A stretch of 64,000 nucleotides of DNA, taken from an uncultured Chloroflexia bacterium (GTDB lineage Bacteria; Chloroflexota; Limnocylindria; QHBO01). Positions 43,370 through 52,735 of this stretch are shown here, one piece after another (within the stretch, counting starts at the first letter, position 1; each line of letters opens with the position of its first letter). The notes below the pieces were generated by a model. It saw only the letters and a program-made list of their open reading frames with translations. It was not told the DNA's origin and did no database searches. The stretch lies in the NCBI GenBank assembly GCA_963812115.1, contig CAWEUD010000043.1, positions 123,535 to 187,534 on the forward strand, written 5' to 3'. Both the position numbers and the translations under genes were made by a program.

Positions 43370-46066
43370 ATGGACCGACCGATGCACGAGATCTTCGACC
43401 AGTTCAAGCACCAGCTCCCCGACATCGACCCCGTCGAAACGCAGGAGTGGATCGATTCGCTGGACGCGGTCGTCGACCAGGTGGGCGCCGAGCGCGCACG
43501 ATTCCTCCTCTTCAAGCTGCTCAAGCGGGCGCGGCAGCGGCAGGTTGGGTTGCCATCGCTGGTGCAGACCCGCTACATCAACACCATCTCGCCCGAACAG
43601 GAGCCGTACTTCCCCGGCGACGAGGCGATGGAGCACCGCATCCGGCGCATGATCCGCTGGAACGCGCTGGCCATGGTGCTGCGCGCGAACTCTCGCTTCG
43701 AGGGGATCGGCGGCCACCTGTCCACCTACGCCAGCGCCGCCAGCCTGTACGAGGTCGGCTTCAACCACTTCTTCCGCGGGCCCGATGGCGAAGGCAGCGG
43801 CGACCAGGTCTTCTTCCAGGGCCATGCCGCCCCCGGCATCTACGCCCGCGCCTTCCTCGAGGGGCGGCTGGACGAGGACAACCTCGACCACTTCCGCCGA
43901 GAGGCGCTGACCCCCCAGGGCCTCTCCTCGTACCCGCACCCGCGGCTGATGCCCGACTTCTGGCAGTTCCCGACGGTGAGCATGGGCCTCGGCCCCATGA
44001 ACGCGATCTACCAGGCGCGTTTCAACCGCTACCTGGCCGCGCGCGGCATCGCGGATACGAGCAGGAGCCGCGTATGGGCGTTCCTCGGGGACGGTGAGAT
44101 GGACGAGCCGGAGTCGATCGGCGCCCTCTCGCTCGCTGCGCGCGAGGGCCTCGACAACCTGGTCTTCGTCGTCAACTGCAACCTGCAGCGGCTCGACGGT
44201 CCGGTGCGCGGCAACGGGAAGATCATCCAGGAGCTGGAGGCGCTCTTCCGCGGCGCCGGCTGGCACGTCATCAAGGTCATCTGGGCCCGCGAGTGGGACG
44301 ACCTGCTGGCGCGGGACAAGGATGGCGTCCTGCTCAACAAGATGAACGAGACGCTCGATGGCGACTACCAGCGCCTCTCGGTGGCCGATGGGGCCTACAT
44401 TCGCGAGCACTTCTTCGGCCCGGATCCGCGGCTCGGTGCGCTCGTCGAGCACCTCTCCGACGAGGAGCTTGCCAAGCTGCGGCGCGGCGGCCACGACTAC
44501 CGCAAGGTCCATGCGGCCTACGCGGCGGCCGTCGAGCACGCTGGCGCACCAGTGGTGATCCTGGCCAAGACGGTCAAGGGCTGGACGCTGGGTCCCGGAA
44601 TCGAGGCCCGCAACGTCACGCACCAGGCCAAGAAGCTGACCCAGGACGAGCTGAAGGTCTTCCGCGATCGCCTTGAGCTGCCCATCCCGGACGACCAGCT
44701 CAAGGAGGCTCCCTACTACCACCCCGGAGCCGACTCGCCGGAGATCGAGTACATGCTCGAGCGACGGCGGCAGCTGGACGGCTTCCTGCCGCAGCGCTCC
44801 GTGCATCCGATGCCGCTGGCCAACGCCGCCGATGGCGCCTACCAGGAGCTCTTCGCGGGATCGGAGCGGGCCGCCTCGACGACCATGGCCTTCAGCCGCC
44901 TGGTCCGGAACCTGACACGCGACAAGCAGATCGGGGCGCGCATCGTGCCCATCATCCCGGACGAGGCGCGCACCTTCGGCATGGATCCGCTCTTCAAGGA
45001 GATCGGCATCTACAACCCGCTCGGCCAGCGCTACACGCCGGTCGACAAGGAGCTGCTGCTGTCGTACCTCGAGAAGGAGGACGGGCAGATCCTGGAGGAG
45101 GGCATCACGGAGGCCGGCGCCATGGCCGACTTCACCGCCGCCGGGACCGCCTACGCCACCCACGGCCAGCCGATGATCCCGTTCTACATCTTCTACTCGA
45201 TGTTCGGTTTCCAGCGAACCGGCGACTTCGCGTGGGCCTTCGGCGACGTCCGCGGCCGCGGCTTCATGATGGGCGCCACCGCCGGTCGCACGACGCTCAC
45301 CGGCGAGGGGCTGCAGCACGACGACGGCCACTCGCACCTGCTCGCCACCACGCTGCCCAACATCCGCGCCTACGACCCGGCCTTCGCCTACGAGCTGGCG
45401 GTCGTGGTGCGCGACGGCATCGGGCGCATGTACGGCGAGGCCGCCGAGGACGTCTTCTACTACGTCACCCTCTACAACGAGAACTGGGCGATGCCGGCCC
45501 GTCCCGATGGCGTCGACGACGGAATCCTGCGCGGGCTCTACCGCTACCGGGCCGCCGAGCGCGGGTCGCGGCGTGTCCAGCTGCTGGCGTCCGGCCCCAT
45601 CCTGCACCAGGCCCTGCGTGCCCAGGAGCTGCTCGCGGAGCGCTACGACGTGGCCGCCGACGTCTGGAGCGCTCCGTCGTTCCAGCAGCTGCGGCGAGAC
45701 GCGCTGCAGGTGGAACGCTGGAATCGGCTCCATCCCGAGAGCGAGCTGCGGGTTCCGTACCTCGTCGAACAGCTCGCCGGCACGGATGGGCCGATCGTTG
45801 CCGCCACCGACTACATGAAGGCCGTGCCGCACATGATCGCGCCGTGGCTCACCGACCGGCAGTACACCGTCCTGGGGACCGATGGGTTCGGCCGCAGCGA
45901 CACGCGCGAGGCGCTTCGCACGCACTTCGAGGTGAGTCCGGAGCAGATCGCCTACGCGTCGCTCCACGGCCTGTGCCTGACCGATCAGGGCAGCCGCGAG
46001 GAGCTGGTCCGGGCGCTAGGTGAGCTGGAGATCGACCCGGATCGGCCCGATCCGGTGCAGTCCTGA
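43370..46066 (+). CDS. aceE: Pyruvate dehydrogenase E1 component, homodimeric AceE type
   Basis: About 900 aa, AceE-like along its length (TPP-binding [10 protein letters not shown], transketolase-like domains). The start is trimmed to the ATG at 43370. Confidence 0.9.
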
Positions 46067-46078
46067 ATCGAGCCTTGC

Positions 46079-46615
46079 CTACTCCCCGGAGAGGCGCGGA
46101 ACTCGCCGCAGCCGCGTCCCGCACTCGCCGCAGAACAGGTAGGAGGCCTCCGCCAGCGAGCCACAGGTGGGGCAGTACGTGGGACCCAGCATGCCGAGCG
46201 CGGCCCGAAAGGCCGCGACGAGGGCTCGCAGCGTGCGCTCCACCACGGCCGGCAGGCCGCGACGCCGAAACCAGCCCGCCCGAGCGCCGTCGCCCTCCTC
46301 CGTGACAGCGTCGACGCCTGGTGGGGCCACGGCGCGGCGCTGCGCGACGCGGGCCCCTGGCGTCCACCCCGACAGGAAACGACTACGCGCGCGGTCGTAG
46401 GCCGCGCGCTCGGCAGGATCCGTGAGCATGTTCCGCACGGCGTTCACGACCCCCATCTCCTCATTCGCGCGCGGCGAGCGGTTACGGTCGGGGTGGAACC
46501 GGCGGGCGAGCCGCCGGCAGGCGGCCGAGACTTCCTCGCTGGAGGCTGAATCATCGAGCTGGAGGAGACGATAGACGTCGCGCTCCGGATGGTAGGGCAG
46601 CAGGCTGGGATGCAT
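46079..46615 (-). CDS. J-domain protein with a C-terminal CxxC...CxxC zinc ribbon
   Basis: J-domain (DVYRLLQLDDSASSEEVSAACRRLARRFHPDR) and C-terminal CPTCGS...CGECG. Confidence 0.7.
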   Translation of the reverse strand: MHPSLLPYHPERDVYRLLQLDDSASSEEVSAACRRLARRFHPDRNRSPRANEEMGVVNAVRNMLTDPAERAAYDRARSRFLSGWTPGARVAQRRAVAPPGVDAVTEEGDGARAGWFRRRGLPAVVERTLRALVAAFRAALGMLGPTYCPTCGSLAEASYLFCGECGTRLRRVPRLSGE

Positions 46616-46720
46616 GGGACGGGGGGATGGTAGCGGACATTGCGCACCGCCGCTCGGGCGCCATTTAACAAGCTGAGCTTCCTATTTTGCTAAGCGGGAT
46701 TGCCAATTGCGAATAAGGGG

Positions 46721-46749
46721 TTGACAACTGCATGCGCGAGCCGTATATT
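46721..46749 (+). promoter_or_regulatory. Near-consensus sigma70-type promoter: -35 TTGACA (46721-46726), 17-nt spacer, -10 TATATT (46744-46749), in an AT-rich island
   Basis: Read directly: ggggTTGACAactgcatgcgcgagccgTATATTgccg. AT-rich upstream (UP-like) tract at 46680-46720. About 50 nt upstream of a strong SD and the ATG at 46802. Confidence 0.6.
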
Positions 46750-46801
46750 GCCGTCGTACTTCACTGAACCGTAAGCGAACATCTTCAAAGTGAAGGAGCG
46801 A

Positions 46802-46960
46802 ATGGCAATGTTGGACTATCGAATGCACTACGCGGTGATGGCGACGCACGATCGCCTGCGCGCCCATCGCCAGCAGGAGATCACGCGCGACCGCGGCGTG
46901 CGGCGCATCTTCCGCCTGGTGGGCGGCCGGAGCGGCGCCCGCAGCGAATCAGGCCGCTGA
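46802..46960 (+). CDS. Small basic protein (52 aa), hypothetical; not present in the supplied ORF table (below the size cutoff)
   Basis: ATG preceded by AAGGAG at 5-nt spacing. Translation: MAMLDYRMHYAVMATHDRLRAHRQQEITRDRGVRRIFRLVGGRSGARSESGR. The stop lies 1 nt before the DUF2089 ATG. Confidence 0.5.
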   Translation: MAMLDYRMHYAVMATHDRLRAHRQQEITRDRGVRRIFRLVGGRSGARSESGR

Positions 46961-46961
46961 G

Positions 46962-47396
46962 ATGGCGCGCGACGTCATCTCCACGTGCCCCGTCTGCGAG
47001 GGCGAGCTGCTGATCACGCGTCTGCACTGCCGCAGCTGTGGCACCGCCCTCGAGGGCGAGTTCGGGGTCGGCCGCTTCGGTCGCCTCTCTCGCGAGCAGC
47101 TTGCGCTCCTGGAAAGCTTCCTAAGGGCGCGCGGCAACCTCAAGGAGATGGAGCGCGAGCTCGGCATCTCCTACCCCACCGTTCGCGGCCGCGTCGACGC
47201 GCTGGTTCGCGCGCTCGGCCTGGGCGACGGCGGGCTGCCCGCCGACGAGGACGACGAGCCGATCTCCGATGCGCAGCAGCCCGCGCCTGCTTCCGACGTG
47301 GCGGCGACACGCCGCGCGATCCTGGAGCGCCTCTCGCGCGGTGAGATCGACGCAGCCGCCGCGGCAGCCGAGCTCCGGTCGCTGGCGGAGAGCTGA
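46962..47396 (+). CDS. DUF2089 family protein (N-terminal zinc ribbon plus HTH)
   Basis: CPVCEGEL...CRSCGT zinc ribbon and the conserved LSREQLALLESFLRARGNLKEMERELGISYPTVRGRVDAL. Confidence 0.8.
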   Translation: MARDVISTCPVCEGELLITRLHCRSCGTALEGEFGVGRFGRLSREQLALLESFLRARGNLKEMERELGISYPTVRGRVDALVRALGLGDGGLPADEDDEPISDAQQPAPASDVAATRRAILERLSRGEIDAAAAAAELRSLAES

Positions 47397-47397
47397 G

Positions 47398-48385
47398 ATG
47401 GCCAGGTTCGTTCGCGTGCAGAACATCCGGCACACACTCGGCGCAGAGGGGCGTTTCGACCTGAAGGTCACCTCCGCAGACGTCCGCGTGCGCGGGAATG
47501 ATGGGGCGGACCTGAGCGTGCGGGCCACGTTCGAGATCCGCGCCGAATCCGAGCAGGAGGCCGACGAGATCTTCCGGCGCGTCCAGCTGCTGACCGAGGC
47601 CGGATCCGGGCGCGTCTCGGTCCAGGAACCGGACGGCGCGCCGTCGATGCGCGGAATGATCGACCGCCTGCTGCGCGGCCGCGGCGGCGTCGAGCTGAGC
47701 GTGGAGGTGGAGGTGCCCCAGGCTGCCGAGGTCCGGCTCGAGACCGTCTCCGGGGACGCGACCGTCGAGGGAATGCTCGGGGCGCAACGCTACACGACCG
47801 TCTCGGGCGACCTGTACCTCACCGACGCGGGCGGCAGCATGCGCGTGAACACGCGTGTCGGGCGACGTCACCGTGCGCGGTGAGCGAGCCATCTCGCTGC
47901 GCAGCGAGGCCGTTTCGGGGGACCTGAGCGTCGCGGTGCCACGCATCGAGACCTGCGCAGCCAGAGCGTCTCCGGTGACGTCGAGGTGGAGGGCGAGCTG
48001 GCACCGACGGGCGAGTTTCGCGCCGAGACGGTGAGCGGAGACGTATCGGTCGGGCTGCTGGGGGGCGCGAACCTTCGAGGTTCGCGGCATCTCGACCGAC
48101 ATCAGCAGCGACCTCGACCACCGAATCGAAGGGCGCCTGGATCGGCGGCGGGTGGTGGTCGGCAGCGGTGGTCCGACATTCGTCTTCAATTCCATGTCCG
48201 GTGACCTGAGCATCCGTCGGCCGAGGCGGGTGACGCCGTTGGCGCCGGATGCGCGACCTTCCGCTCCGACGGCGACGCTCCGGGCGCCGGACGAGGCGGA
48301 GCAGCTGGCCGTGCTGCAGGCTCTCGAGCGCGGCGAGATCGACGTGGACGAGGCGAGCCGGCGGCTGGGCGGCGGCGATGCGTGA
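47398..48385 (+). pseudogene. DUF4097 ('toastrack'/putative adhesin; LiaG/LiaX-YvlB C-terminal-like) repeat protein with at least three frameshifts
   Basis: Repeated beta-strand units ending VSGD(V/L) (…TVSGDATVEG…, TVSGDLYLTD, AVSGDLSVAV, SVSGDVEVEG, TVSGDVSVGL, SMSGDLSIRR) spread over three frames between 47398 and 48385. Confidence 0.7.
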
Positions 48386-48757
48386 CGAGCTGGGGACCAT
48401 CCTGCGCCTCGTGGCCGAGGGCAAGCTGAGCGCGGAGGAGGCCGCCCCCATCATCGAGGCGCTCCAGCGCCGGCAGGCGTACGACGCCCCGCAGGCGACG
48501 AGGCCGGCCACCGGGGTGAAGACCATGCCGGTCCCCCACGAGGACGCCGAGTGCGGATCCAGGTCACGGAGCGTGGACGTCACGTCGTGGACCTCCGCAT
48601 CCCCCTCGCGTTCGCGGCGGCCGCCGCACGGGTCGTTCCGGGGATCCCGGACACCTACGCAGCCATGATCGAGCAGGCGGTCGACAACGAGACCGCCGGG
48701 ATCATCGTCGACACCGAGGACGAAAGCGGTGACGGCGTCCTCATCAGCTTGGAGTAG
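48378..48757 (+). CDS. SHOCT/LiaX-N-terminal-like small protein, with one frameshift near 48540
   Basis: Frame A: MRDELGTILRLVAEGKLSAEEAAPIIEALQRRQ. Frame B continues …VRIQVTERGRHVVDLRIPLAFAAAAARVVPGIPDTYAAMIEQAVDNETAGIIVDTEDESGDGVLISLE. Confidence 0.5.
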
Positions 48758-48764
48758 CAGGACC

Positions 48765-51062
48765 ATGGACGTGACCACAGCCCCCGCGGCCGACGCCGCC
48801 CGGGCCTCCGGCCCCCGGCTGACGCGGCCGCTGCGGGAGCGCGACTTCCGCCTCGTGTTCGCCGGCGAGAGCATTTCGCTGCTGGGGGACCAGTTCCATT
48901 TCGTTGCCCTGGCCTGGCTGACCCTGCAGCTCACGGCCTCGGGCCTGGCGCTTGGCACGGTGCTGACCGTGGCCGCCGTGCCACGCGTCATCTTCATGCT
49001 CGTCGGCGGAGCACTCTCCGACCGGATGTCGCCGCGGACGCTGATGCTTGCTTCGAACGCGATCCGGGCCGCGGTCGTCGGCGTGGTTGCGGCGCTGGTC
49101 CTGACCGGCAACGCGCAGCTCTGGCAGCTGTACATCCTCGCCGGCATCTTCGGCATGGTCGACGCGTTCTTCTACCCGGCCATGAACACCATCGTGCCGA
49201 TGCTGGTTCGGGAGTCGCTCCTCTCTCCGGCCAACGCGCTGATCCAGGCGACGCAGCAGCTGTCCGGCCTGATCGGCCCGGCATTGGCGGGCGTCGTCAT
49301 CGCGGCCGTCGAGACCGGGCCGGCGTTTGCCATCGACGCCGTCTCGTTCGCCGTCGCGGCCGGAGCACTGCTGCTCGTCCGTGGCGGCCGACGCCTCCCC
49401 GCACAGGCCGCCGCCGAGGGCGAGCGATTGCTGGGCACGATCGGTTCCGGCGTCGCCTACGCGTGGCGCGACCCGCCCGTCCGCGCGCTGATCTTGCTGA
49501 CGGCTGCGTTCAACTTCGGGTTCATCGGGCCGATCGGCGTCGGCATTCCGTACCTCGCCGACCAGCGCTTCGGCGGCGGGGCGATCGCGTTCGGCGTGCT
49601 GATGTCCGCATTCGGCGCCGGAGCGCTCTTGGGCGCCATCCTGGCCGGCTCCCTGCGGCACGTCCCGCGGCTGGGCGCAGTGGTCATGGTCGTGGCTGCC
49701 ATCCTGGGCCTGGAGCTCGCGCTGCTCGGCATCGTGCCGAACCTGGCGCTGGCACTCCCGGTGGGCGCGACGATGGGCGTCGGGGTCGGCTTCATCAACG
49801 TCCGGGTCATCTCATGGCTGCAGGCGCGGACGCCGGAAGGCATGCGTGGCCGGGTCATGAGCCTCGCGATGCTCGGCTCGCAGGGCCTCGGCCCGTTCAG
49901 CCTCGTCGTCGCGGGTCTGCTCATCGAATTCGGGGCGGTCTCGGTCATGTTCGCGGTGGCCGGATCGATCATCGTCCTGGCTGTGCTGGCGGGAGTTCGT
50001 CATGGGGGTACCCGCGCAGATGCGCGACGAGGCAGCGTCATGACCGCGCTCGCGATCGAGGCCCGGGGACTGGTCAAGGAGTTCGAGCGCGGACGTCGCA
50101 CGACCTGGCAGCGGCTGCGCCGCAAGCCCGACCGCCGGGAGCGGTTCCGCGCCGTCGACGGCGTCGACCTGGAGGTGGCGCAGGGCGAGATCTTCGGCGT
50201 GCTGGGGCCGAACGGCGCTGGCAAGACGACGACCATGAAGATGCTGGCGACGCTCCTCGAGCCAACGGCGGGGAGCGCCCGAGTCCTCGGCCTCGACGTC
50301 GTCACCCAGGCGCGCGACGTTCGGCGCCGCATGGGGGCCGTCCTCTCCGACGGGCGCAGCCTCTACTGGAAGCTGACCGCCCGGGAGAACCTGGAGTACT
50401 TCGCCGCGCTGTACCACGTGCCGCCGGCAGAGGCCCGGGGACGCATCGACGGCGCGCTGCGCGCCGTCCGCCTGGAGGATCGCGACGAGGACTACGTGGA
50501 GCGCTTCAGCACCGGCATGCGCCAGCGGCTGGTGCTCGCCCGCGCCCTGCTCCCCGACCCGGAGCTGCTGCTGCTGGACGAGCCGACGGTCGGCCTGGAC
50601 CCACAGTCGGCGCGCGACCTTCGGGACCGCGTGCGCGAGCTGAAGGCGCAGGGACGGACGGTCCTGCTCACCACGCACTACATGGAGGAGGCCGATCAGC
50701 TCTGCGACCGGATCGCGATCGTCGACCACGGGCGCGTCGTGGCGCTGGACACGCCGGCGCGCCTGAAGCAGACGGTGGGCGCCACCGAGGTGGTGCGCCT
50801 GGAGGTCTCGCCCCTCGGGGACGGCACCTTGAACGGGCAGCTCGTTTCGCGCCTGGCGGGCGCGGGCCAGGTCGTCCAGCAGGAGCTCGGGACCGATGGA
50901 CGCCTCAGCATCACGGTCCACTGCCGCAGCGCCCGCGACTTCGTGCCGGCCGCCTTCGACGCGGCGCGCGCGGAAGCGGCGCGCATCGACCACGTCGAGG
51001 TGGTCCCGGTCACGCTGGAGGACGTCTTCATCTCGCTCACCGGCCGGGGGCTGCGAGAGTGA
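48765..51062 (+). CDS. MFS transporter (425 aa, DHA3/EntS-like) fused in frame, with no stop, to an ABC transporter ATP-binding domain (ATG at 50040)
   Basis: 12 to 14 TM MFS portion, then MTALAIEARGLVKEF…GPNGAGKTTT (Walker A), FSTGMRQRL (signature), LLLDEPTVGLD (Walker B). An ATGA lies at the junction in the +1 frame, so the fusion may be an artefact of an upstream indel. Confidence 0.7.
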   Translation: MDVTTAPAADAARASGPRLTRPLRERDFRLVFAGESISLLGDQFHFVALAWLTLQLTASGLALGTVLTVAAVPRVIFMLVGGALSDRMSPRTLMLASNAIRAAVVGVVAALVLTGNAQLWQLYILAGIFGMVDAFFYPAMNTIVPMLVRESLLSPANALIQATQQLSGLIGPALAGVVIAAVETGPAFAIDAVSFAVAAGALLLVRGGRRLPAQAAAEGERLLGTIGSGVAYAWRDPPVRALILLTAAFNFGFIGPIGVGIPYLADQRFGGGAIAFGVLMSAFGAGALLGAILAGSLRHVPRLGAVVMVVAAILGLELALLGIVPNLALALPVGATMGVGVGFINVRVISWLQARTPEGMRGRVMSLAMLGSQGLGPFSLVVAGLLIEFGAVSVMFAVAGSIIVLAVLAGVRHGGTRADARRGSVMTALAIEARGLVKEFERGRRTTWQRLRRKPDRRERFRAVDGVDLEVAQGEIFGVLGPNGAGKTTTMKMLATLLEPTAGSARVLGLDVVTQARDVRRRMGAVLSDGRSLYWKLTARENLEYFAALYHVPPAEARGRIDGALRAVRLEDRDEDYVERFSTGMRQRLVLARALLPDPELLLLDEPTVGLDPQSARDLRDRVRELKAQGRTVLLTTHYMEEADQLCDRIAIVDHGRVVALDTPARLKQTVGATEVVRLEVSPLGDGTLNGQLVSRLAGAGQVVQQELGTDGRLSITVHCRSARDFVPAAFDAARAEAARIDHVEVVPVTLEDVFISLTGRGLRE

Positions 51063-51903
51063 GCGGATCGGTCATCCTCGGCGACCTGCGCGCATTCGGC
51101 GCGGCGGCGATGAAGGAGTGGCGCCTCCTGCGCCGCTACCCGACCATGTTCATCGGGTTCCTGTTCTGGCCGATCGCGCTGCCGCTCTTCTACGTCATGC
51201 AGGCGCGCGGCTACGCGGGCGACAGCCAGGCCGCCATGGACGCGTTCGCCCAGCGCTCGGGGACGGTCGAGGTGGCCGGATTCCTGTTCCTGGGCTGGGC
51301 GGCCTACATGTGGATCAGCATGATCCTGTGGGGCCCGGGCACGGCGCTGCGCACCGAGCAGGTGCGCGGCTCGCTCGAGGCGCTCTTCATGACGCCCGTC
51401 TCGCGGCTGGTGATCCTCTTCGGGCCGATGGTCAGCCAGATCGTCTGGGCGCTCTGGATGTACGCGATGGTGGGCGGCACGATCACCCTCGTCTTCGGCG
51501 TGGAGGTCGGCCTCGCGGCAGCGCTGCGCGCCGTTGTCGTGATCGCCGTGGCCGTTCCCGCCCTGTACGGGCTCGGAGCGCTCTTCGCCGCGGTCGTGCT
51601 GCGCTTCGGCGAGGTGAGCGCGCTGGTGCAGGGCGTGCGCGGCATCTTCACCGTCTTCTGCGGCATGAGCTTCCCGATCATCGTCCTGCCCGAGTGGGGC
51701 CGGGCGGTGGCGCTGGCCCTGCCGCCCACCTACCTGATCGCCGACCTGCGGCGCGTGCTGCTGACCGGGGCCGACCTCGGCACGCTGCTCCCGGACCTGG
51801 CCGTGCTGCTGGCCTGGGCCTGGCCCTCTGCGCGCTGGCGGTCGTCGCCTTCCGCCGGACCGAGCGCTACGCCCGCCGCGGCGGCAGCCTGGCGCAGTAC
51901 TGA
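51059..51903 (+). CDS. ABC-2 type transporter permease, with one frameshift near 51830
   Basis: The GTG start overlaps the ATPase stop (GTGA). The TM-rich protein switches frames within its last 25 codons (…AWAW / GLGLALCALAVVAFRRTERYARRGGSLAQY). Confidence 0.75.
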
Positions 51904-51908
51904 AGCCG

Positions 51909-52735
51909 ATGAACGCCGAGCTGCGCGCCGCCCTGGCGATCGCGCGCAAGGAGCTGCAGATGGCCCGGCGCTACCCGCTGCAGCTGGTCAACGAGGTGCT
52001 CCAGCCGCTCTACCAGTTCCTGCTGCCCAGCCTGCTGCTGGGGGCCAGCCTTCCTGGTCGGCGGCCGCGCCATCGGCCTCGAGTCGGTCACCGGAACGGA
52101 CGACCTGGCCGGCTACCTGTTCCTCGGCATCGTGGTGAGCGGCCTGGTGGCGACGGCCTTCTGGGAGATGGCGTTCGGCCTGAAGCGCGAGATGGACGCC
52201 GGGACGCTGGAGCCGGCCTGGCTGACCCCCACGCGCCCGGAGACGCTGGTGCTGGGGCGTGCCATCTCCGGCCTGGCGGTCGCCAGCCTGGCCGGAGCCG
52301 TGCTGGTCATCATCGGCCTGACGGTCTTCGGTGCGACGGTCTCACCGGCCGTGCTGCTGGCGCTGCCCGCCCTGGTGCTGGCGCGTCTCAGCATGGTGGG
52401 CATCGGCTTCCTCGTCGCCTCGTCGGTGCTGCTGATCCGCGAGCCGAACTTCTTCGTGGACGCCACCAACTTCATGTTCTCCTCCGTGTCGGGCGTGGCC
52501 TTCCCGGTCGTCGTGCTGCCGGCGCTGCTGCAGCCGATCGCCTACCTGCTGCCCGACTACCTACGCGGTCGACCTGCTGCGGGTCTACGCCATGGGGACG
52601 CGGCCGCTGCTCGACGCCGCGCTCGAGTGGCTCGTGCTGGCCGTGATGCCCGCGCTGCTCATCTGGCTGGGCCGCGCGGTCTTCCTGCGCACCGAGCACC
52701 GGATGCGCGTTCGCGGCACGCTCGGCCAGCACTGA
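51909..52735 (+). CDS. ABC-2 type transporter permease, with two frameshifts (near 52050 and near 52560)
   Basis: MNAELRAALAIARKELQMARRYPLQLVNEV… continues in a second frame (…FLVGGRAIGLESVTGTDDLAGYLFLGIVVSGL…) and a third (…AVDLLRVYAMGTRPLLDAALEWLVLAV…). Confidence 0.7.

Follow-up and report, generated by a model that had tools for sequence, protein, structure and literature searches.

The window analysed here is a 64-kb stretch of DNA (about 70% G+C) from an uncultured bacterium of the Limnocylindria (Chloroflexota; contig CAWEUD010000043.1), and all positions below follow its numbering. Within it we studied a row of genes for a small basic peptide, a DUF2089 protein, a Toastrack (DUF4097) protein and a SHOCT-like protein with an additional domain X (hereafter SHOCT-X), the last two of which appear broken by frameshifts. 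We consider it reasonably probable that this row is a functional Limnocylindria operon, most plausibly a self-regulating cytoplasmic signalling module that is often co-transcribed with exporter genes, and that its frame breaks are errors of the consensus sequence. The gene set and its conservation, a module shared by three of the proteins, the lack of membrane segments, a promoter and phased repeats in front of it are the observations from which this reading starts. The order small peptide, DUF2089, DUF4097 and SHOCT-like protein had been proposed earlier from the letters and the open reading frames (ORFs) of the window (in the following the sequence-only reading), and every element of it was found on the plus strand; the three domain calls reached Pfam scores above cut-off, in the case of DUF4097 and SHOCT-like after frame correction.

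The DUF2089 protein exceeded the gathering scores of two Pfam hidden Markov models (HMMs; PF09862, 76.6 bits, cut-off 33.4, and PF22747, 48.4 bits, cut-off 27.6) and has the four zinc-binding cysteines of such proteins, the zinc ribbon CxxC...CxxC being formed by C9, C12, C23 and C26. Behind the ribbon come a helix-turn-helix (HTH) and an acidic linker, and the C-terminal part is a SHOCT-like module (RRAILERLSRGEIDAAAAAAELRSL). Residues 1-88, which comprise zinc ribbon and HTH (46962-47225), are virtually invariant across five aligned loci, among which at least two (L003 and L005) have Toastrack proteins just 57-60% identical to that of the window. Judged from this alignment, the constraint is unusually strong for so small a regulator, and the invariance agrees with the conserved repeats upstream of the promoter described below. 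The search for a solved DUF2089 homologue gave no significant structure match, with a sigma-factor region-4 chain at E=0.78.

Left uncorrected, the ORF pieces of the Toastrack gene gave no Pfam match. The rebuilt product of 330 aa matched PF13349 with 56.9 bits (cut-off 22.9, E=2.7e-15) over model positions 5-246 of 247. The VSGD repeats noted in the sequence-only reading are present in the rebuilt sequence as six exact copies (VSGDA, VSGDL, VSGDV, VSGDL, VSGDV and VSGDV), accompanied by ISTD and MSGD. Homologues run into the thousands, and the best are full-length proteins of 326-336 aa from Chloroflexota, Candidatus Limnocylindria, with up to 85% identity. For the structure we relied on the AlphaFold2 (AF2) model of an orthologue with 85% identity (P0002, predicted local distance difference test score (pLDDT) 89) instead of the broken window gene; in it a long beta-helix leads into a disordered linker, and two helices come last. 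The top Foldseek matches of this model in the PDB were 4QRK (E=5e-8), 3LYC, 3JX8, 4OPW and 3PET (target-normalised TM-score 0.68 for the last), all of them Toastrack exemplars, which assigns the protein to the Toastrack/DUF4097 fold by way of its orthologue.

Intact SHOCT-X orthologues of 126 aa comprise an N-terminal SHOCT-like module (DELGTILRLVAEGKLSAEEAAPIIEAL), a variable linker and a conserved domain X of 70 aa. Their N-terminus matched PF22746 (SHOCT-like_DUF2089-C) with 34.3-35.2 bits, above the gathering score of 27. The same family was the top Pfam match on the corresponding segments of the other two proteins, there below the cut-off: 20.6 bits for the Toastrack C-terminus, where the module follows the Toastrack domain on the same polypeptide (EQLAVLQALERGEIDVDEASRRLGG), and 12.9 bits for the DUF2089 C-terminus. 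A narrow HMM made from Limnocylindria SHOCT-X N-termini missed the modules in the DUF2089 and Toastrack proteins, so that profile-profile comparison was required. With hhalign, the DUF2089 C-terminus aligned with both the Toastrack C-terminus (P=9.4e-8) and the SHOCT-X N-terminus (P=2.3e-6). As far as these profiles tell, DUF2089, Toastrack and SHOCT-X proteins each carry one related SHOCT-like module of two predicted helices.

In the AF2 model of SHOCT-X (pLDDT 79), a pair of helices at the N-terminus is joined through a disordered linker to domain X, which is compact and has the element order strand-strand-helix-helix-strand-strand. Domain X has no Pfam family and no Foldseek match in the PDB at E<=0.001 (best E=0.28), a search that may have been blunted by the full-length model with its disordered linker. 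At 50% identity the SHOCT-X family forms 604 clusters among 1.84 billion representative proteins. One metagenomic protein of 457 aa (P0270) joins Toastrack, SHOCT-like, SHOCT-like and X in a single ORF; it could be a natural fusion or reflect a missed stop codon, and with either origin it supports a functional link between the Toastrack and SHOCT-X genes. A membrane-spanning hydrophobic segment was found in none of the small ORF, DUF2089, Toastrack and SHOCT-X proteins (for Toastrack, the maximal Kyte-Doolittle value over 19 residues is 0.78), and the DUF2089, Toastrack and SHOCT-X proteins are acidic with an isoelectric point (pI) of about 4.8-4.9. The linker of SHOCT-X (about 48465-48550 in the window) varies in length between loci and frequently has a high content of His, Gly and Glu, as in HEGHGGHAGEDHA; a His-rich linker of this kind may hint at metal binding.

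Conservation was followed in one genome per GTDB species, with the DUF2089 protein as query and lineage-specific peptide patterns that capture Limnocylindria-like loci only; contexts beyond Limnocylindria come from single look-ups. A close DUF2089 relative is present in 244 GTDB species genomes. The 80 loci that were fetched all belong to Limnocylindria/Chloroflexota metagenome-assembled genomes (MAGs) or are likely mis-binned. The succession DUF2089, Toastrack, SHOCT-X, in the following the triad, is present in every Limnocylindria-related locus with enough sequence (73 of 73). Triads from other lineages (L087-L090 and L095) have 4-nt gene overlaps, lie in another neighbourhood and come without exporters and without the small ORF. 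The pair DUF2089 and SHOCT-X occurs without Toastrack in a low-GC genome (L086) and behind a fusion of a major facilitator superfamily (MFS) transporter with HEAT repeats (L093), and the low-GC members of the SHOCT-X family align over domain X. In L091 (3666-5390, 49% GC; also in L092) the order is MFS_3, a 66-aa ORF, DUF2089, a 200-aa paralogue and SHOCT-X. The 200-aa paralogue has a SHOCT-like head, two predicted membrane helices and an X-like tail, and the existence of a SHOCT-X variant inserted in the membrane supports a role close to the membrane; the recurrence of an MFS gene and a small ORF in this lineage may be meaningful. The system is thus layered, with DUF2089 and SHOCT-X as the core, Toastrack as a frequent insert, and small ORF and exporters as lineage-specific additions.

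The sequence-only reading had placed an MFS-ABC (ATP-binding cassette) exporter cluster directly behind these genes, and genes for an MFS_3 transporter, an ABC ATPase and two ABC-2 permeases are indeed packed behind SHOCT-X with gaps of 0-8 nt. A single nucleotide separates the stop of the small ORF from the ATG of DUF2089, and likewise the DUF2089 stop from the ATG at 47398; the start of the SHOCT-X gene overlaps the end of the Toastrack gene by 8 nt. No credible terminator was found between 46750 and 52735, and the tight spacing suggests that the exporters are co-transcribed with the genes upstream. Downstream of the triad in 62 loci, MFS and ABC genes were found together in 21, MFS only in 24 and ABC only in 7, with 2 more in which ABC is accompanied by an MFS remnant, which gives exporters in 54 of 62 loci (about 87%), and no exporter was found in 7 (plus 1 with a remnant). 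Exporters are hence gained and lost freely across these loci. In the closest relative, L001, a natural deletion has removed about 1.07 kb of the MFS gene and a remnant of 73 aa is left (L001 7368-7589, corresponding to 48952-50019 of the window).

In front of the operon lies a sigma-70-type promoter that agrees with the consensus at 11 of 12 positions (TTGACA at 46721-46726, a 17-nt spacer and TATATT at 46744-46749). It is the sole such match in 9.2 kb, where 0.3 would be expected by chance. TTGACA and a TAnnnT box are found in 73 related loci at a fixed distance to the operon, with the 17-nt spacer kept in 67 of them. When the 73 loci were anchored on the -35 box and the information content was calculated per position, conserved positions upstream of it stood out from unconserved intergenic DNA; they correspond to two copies of C.AWTT.SGAA with a period of exactly 21 bp, and about 7 nt lie between the end of the proximal copy and TTGACA. 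With the window left out of its training set, a weight matrix gave its best tandem scores in the 64 kb (25.7 and 23.7) only at 46660-46714, the next-best locus reaching 13 or less. The matrix also suggests a third phased copy there, with the spacing of 21 bp retained. Repeats of the GCAA/CGAA type with 21-bp phasing also precede TTGACA in the distant triad loci L087 and L089, and L095 has GCAA-type elements before its TTGACA. On these grounds the phased repeats are a candidate operator, possibly shared with the divergent J-domain gene on their other side.

From these observations we propose a scheme in which one strong sigma-70-type promoter would drive the peptide, the DUF2089 factor, the soluble Toastrack protein and SHOCT-X, and usually an MFS and/or ABC-2 exporter as well. 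Contacts between the SHOCT-like two-helix modules would bring the three acidic proteins together, possibly on the inner side of the membrane; the two broad sheets of Toastrack would form the platform for docking, and domain X, or else its linker, would be the sensing, signal-receiving or output end. Depending on its state, the complex would retain the DUF2089 factor or set it free, and the factor in turn would bind the phased repeats beside the -35 box and set the expression of its own operon, of the co-transcribed exporters and perhaps of the J-domain gene. The scheme would parallel, within one locus, the restraint of LiaFSR signalling by the Toastrack domains of LiaF and LiaX. A more specific version, which we regard as unlikely, is a one-locus partner-switch: here exchange of SHOCT-like hairpins, possibly at the membrane, would decide whether DUF2089 occupies the operator and the efflux genes are activated, and the conserved arginine-rich 50-aa peptide may modulate the exchange. 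If true, such a signalling logic would differ from that of two-component, anti-sigma and PadR-HAAS systems. Throughout an abundant class of uncultured soil bacteria the triad is a fixed trait, and other phyla have it as well. It also offers a compact, testable system, with one promoter and its candidate operators, a regulator of which the DNA-binding half is nearly invariant, and three small soluble proteins sharing an interaction module. The locus could in this way reveal what Toastrack and SHOCT-like domains do.

The frameshifts in the DUF4097 and SHOCT genes, which the sequence-only reading had pointed out, were traced to four window-specific 1-nt indels in a three-way alignment with two syntenic contigs, L001 and L002 (90% and 87% DNA identity to the window), in which all four genes of the module are intact and the Toastrack and SHOCT-X orthologues have 328 and 126 aa. 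They are an inserted C at 47854, a deletion at 47949/50, an inserted A at 48070 and a deletion at 48464, the first three in the Toastrack gene and the last in SHOCT-X, so that four breaks fall within 610 bp and the original Toastrack frame meets a TGA at 47881-47883. Programmed frameshifting was rejected, since neither close orthologue has the indels, which moreover include insertions as well as deletions and extend into neighboring genes. In total 21 window-specific indels of 1-2 nt lie between 47854 and 54385, in six protein-coding genes and at two intergenic sites; the six genes span at least two functional units, namely the operon and a separate amino-acid permease with about 10 indels. 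None was found in 45016-47853. One of them, a +1 insertion at 49996 in the MFS gene, creates an artificial MFS-ABC ORF of 777 aa (48729-51062). In relatives the genes for MFS (425-432 aa) and ABC ATPase (337-341 aa) are separate with an overlap of 4 nt, and the MFS orthologue of L002 is a separate protein of 425 aa. Compared with L002, differences of 1-2 nt comprise 17 insertions vs 5 deletions, and the ratio of indels to substitutions is about 1:3.

Breaks of this kind are also found elsewhere in the window. Segmentation of its whole length by codon usage per frame recovered the known breaks and in addition patches at 25.3-26.1, about 32.1, 33.3-34.4, 35.0-36.3 and about 55.5 kb; frame breaks were also noticed at 6.3-7.7 and 51.8-55.5 kb. 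The patch at 25.3-26.1 kb includes an E1-alpha-like gene and a protein with the motif GGTCLNRGCIPSK, which we take to be dihydrolipoamide dehydrogenase, and a LipB-like gene lies in the patch at about 32.1 kb. Genes that by eye resemble those for a metallo-beta-lactamase (MBL)-fold hydrolase, a flavin adenine dinucleotide (FAD) oxidoreductase, an amino-acid permease and a GT39-like glycosyltransferase are broken as well. As a control for assembly type, 85 related loci were compared, with MFD MAGs whose contigs are called "contig_N" taken as long-read assemblies on account of these names and of their long contigs. In homologous genes, splits resembling frame breaks amounted to 1.65 per 10 kb in 24 such long-contig MAGs vs 0.06 per 10 kb in 61 MAGs of short-read style. 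Because the indels are spread over unrelated and housekeeping genes, measure 1-2 nt, are biased towards insertions and reach about a third of the substitutions, and because of the assembly-type control, the four breaks very probably reflect a poor consensus of the assembly and not biology. The consensus quality is patchy, which makes pseudogene calls from this contig unsafe.

Several points weigh against the operon being intact and regulated as we propose. With L002 as outgroup, 82 nonsynonymous changes fall on the window lineage and 36 on L001, at 212 vs 196 synonymous ones. This excess of about 3:1 nonsynonymous to synonymous changes fits unselected change, for which errors and relaxed selection would serve alike; it is concentrated in the second ABC-2 permease (ABC2b) and the amino-acid permease, and only 2 of 69 window-specific nonsynonymous changes are found 9 nt or less from an indel, so that misalignment beside indels does not account for it. 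Within the shared module, the comparison of the Toastrack C-terminus with the SHOCT-X N-terminus is weak (hhalign P=1e-3, probability 21%). The phased repeats might act as UP-like elements or serve the divergent J-domain gene. Linkage to exporters varies and is lacking in the triads of other lineages, so that the exporters may not be the regulated output. Finally, DNA binding, protein contacts, membrane association and an inducing signal are all steps that we infer, and we know of no experimental study of any DUF2089, SHOCT-X or soluble Toastrack protein.

The sequence-only reading had left it between a decaying module and locally poor sequence. Real decay would mean that Toastrack, SHOCT-X and the downstream transporters became true pseudogenes after the module had lost its use. 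The crowding of the breaks, the premature TGA and the substitution excess, which does not lie beside the indels, would fit it, and in L001 most of the MFS gene is genuinely missing, which shows that gene loss does occur here. Breaks are, however, also found in adjacent unrelated genes and occur elsewhere in genes of central metabolism. In bacterial pseudogenes deletions predominate and events are larger, whereas every indel here is of 1-2 nt and insertions prevail; the indel-to-substitution ratio is also very high for natural decay. Equivalent breaks are found at other positions in long-contig MAGs and nearly never in short-read MAGs, and the triad is kept in all relatives. Decay is thus unlikely, being disfavoured by the spread of the indels, the intact orthologues and the assembly-type control, and the poor-sequence half of the earlier alternative is the one we favour.

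The positions of the operon genes, the promoter elements and the divergent neighbor are collected in Table 1.

Table 1. Features of the Toastrack/SHOCT-X operon and its upstream region in the 64-kb window.
Feature	Position	Strand	Remark
Small basic ORF, 50 aa	46808-46960	+	Start at conserved MLDYR
DUF2089 gene, 144 aa, intact	46962-47396	+	PF09862 and PF22747
Toastrack (DUF4097) gene	47398-48385	+	PF13349 after rebuild across 3 frame changes
SHOCT-X gene	48378-48757	+	PF22746; one frame correction needed
MFS_3 transporter gene	48765-50043	+	Pfam, orthologue comparison
ABC ATPase gene	50040-51062	+	Pfam, orthologue comparison
ABC-2 permease, first	51059-51903	+	Deletion at 51813
ABC-2 permease, second	51909-52735	+	Insertions near 52045 and 52555
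Sigma-70-type promoter TTGACA-17 nt-TATATT	46721-46749	+	
Three phased direct repeats, candidate operator	46660-46714	+	Starts at 46660, 46681 and 46702
J-domain protein with C-terminal zinc ribbon (DUF7577-like)	46079-46615	-	Pfam; divergent from operon

The small ORF at the head of the operon encodes MLDYRMHYAVMATHDRLR...RRIFRL (pI 11.7) and is preceded by an AAGGAG ribosome-binding site at 46793-46798; another ATG in frame, at 46802, where the sequence-only reading began, lies two codons before the conserved start. An ORF of about 47-52 aa that ends a few nt from the DUF2089 start was present in 80 of 84 loci. Conservation comprises the head MLDYRLHYA..A.EDRLR, an N-terminal motif seen in most loci, and the basic tail KR(I/V)FRL...GRR, and the dN/dS ratio is about 0.46 (NG86). 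The peptide has no Pfam match and is Arg-rich and hydrophilic, with a maximal Kyte-Doolittle value of -0.38. It could be a fourth subunit or modulator of the module; by analogy with leaderless-bacteriocin clusters it might be an exported product, which is less likely.

This analogy leads to a further explanation, namely that the locus exists for the sake of its small cationic ORF and that the operon makes, regulates, exports or resists a small basic peptide. In the Firmicutes clusters of enterocin DD14 (ORF C) and bawcin (BawC), a DUF2089 gene stands between peptides of 43-48 aa and ABC export genes, and here, too, DUF2089 adjoins a conserved small cationic ORF with export genes behind it in most loci; the lineage of L091 repeats the combination of MFS_3, a small ORF and DUF2089. 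The DUF2089 proteins of the bacteriocin clusters have, however, 89-98 aa, and no Toastrack or SHOCT-X is reported there. Leaderless bacteriocins show a Trp/Lys-rich amphipathic pattern, which the Arg-rich, hydrophilic peptide of the window lacks, so that the small ORF is not bacteriocin-like. Triad loci outside Limnocylindria do without small ORF and exporters, and 7-8 Limnocylindria loci keep the small ORF and have no exporters. We therefore hold a peptide-centred function to be quite improbable.

Concerning its relation to known systems, the locus is, judged by its domains, a variant of the DUF2089/Toastrack/SHOCT-like neighborhoods described by Ravi, Anantharaman et al. 2024 (mSystems, PMC11237479). 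These authors defined Toastrack and proposed it as a sub-membrane signalling platform, recognised a zinc ribbon, an HTH and a SHOCT-like segment within DUF2089, suggested that SHOCT-like domains act at the inner membrane face and reported Actinobacteria with Toastrack-SHOCT-like fusions and with Toastrack in transport operons. Common to their neighborhoods and ours, both of them computational, are the architecture of DUF2089, a downstream SHOCT-like+X gene and a Toastrack in the operon. The context "DUF2089 -> SHOCT-like+X", listed for Bacillus megaterium (PMC11237479), is present here with Toastrack in between, a likeness drawn from the description of that pair; the bare pair is found in L086 and L093, and in L091 it comes with the membrane-spanning paralogue. 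Of their four-gene context, which comprises a sigma factor, a zf-HC2 anti-sigma receptor with HEAT repeats, one or more membrane-anchored Toastracks and DUF2089 (PMC11237479), only DUF2089 and Toastrack are present. Unlike there, Toastrack is soluble and the orthologous loci have no sigma/anti-sigma gene up to a distance of about 5 kb; a translationally coupled triad is found instead, together with a conserved 50-aa ORF, a promoter with phased repeats and variable MFS/ABC-2 exporters. New compared with the known kind are thus the soluble Toastrack, the lack of sigma/anti-sigma genes, the three carriers of a SHOCT-like module in one operon, the small ORF and the candidate operators.

The sequence-only reading was right in placing the locus broadly among Toastrack-type, presumed envelope-stress modules, and went too far in taking it for a LiaX/YvlB-type protein split over separate genes. 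That explanation would see an envelope-stress effector distributed over three genes and answering lipopeptide-like or membrane-active agents through a distant LiaFSR-like system. It draws on the common vocabulary of a beta-rich Toastrack domain and helical SHOCT-like regions, on the naming of some homologues as 'YvlB' by JGI and on matches to Toastrack parts of LiaG and LiaX in NCBIfam. These matches are weak and more than ten-fold under the family cut-offs, at 28 bits vs a cut-off of 285 for LiaG (NF049997), of which the N-terminal membrane anchor is missing as well, and 19.2 bits vs 350 for LiaX (NF038025), where only Toastrack rungs at residues 151-219 are covered. LiaX of Enterococcus faecalis is a protein of 533 aa, surface-exposed or released, that binds daptomycin, is controlled by LiaFSR, lies beside PspC and a holin-like protein (liaXYZ) and negatively regulates LiaFSR through its beta-rich C-terminal domain; this is the single experimental precedent for a Toastrack-type domain that holds back a system in control of transcription. 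YvlB of Bacillus subtilis (yvlABCD) has N-terminal SHOCT-like domains followed by Toastrack and adjoins a PspC homologue (PMC11237479); going by this description, the protein of the window differs in its C-terminal SHOCT-like module and in the lack of an adjacent PspC. Genes for PspC, a holin-like protein, LiaF, a histidine kinase or a response regulator were found neither in nor beside the operon in the annotated orthologous loci. The domain order is reversed compared with LiaX and YvlB and their partners are absent. Nor is anything split, as Toastrack keeps its own SHOCT-like module on one polypeptide, and the DUF2089 zinc-ribbon HTH has no counterpart in LiaX or YvlB. With LiaF and LiaG, which are membrane-anchored and work with LiaS/LiaR, the module shares the Toastrack fold and the presumed restraint of a signalling protein, but it has no membrane segment and relies on a zinc-ribbon HTH of one-component style. 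The locus also has a transcription factor of its own and a strong promoter of constitutive type, and a split LiaX/YvlB effector is therefore very improbable. An anti-phage defence system was dismissed, as PADLOC gave two chance-level matches (E of about 0.003, 14-16 bits).

On the minus strand upstream of the operon, the J-domain gene is syntenic in most Limnocylindria loci and absent beside the triad in other lineages; it lies outside the conserved core. As the repeats lie between both, it may be co-regulated with the operon. Synteny in the Limnocylindria loci also extends to a gene for the E1 component of pyruvate dehydrogenase (PDH-E1) upstream.

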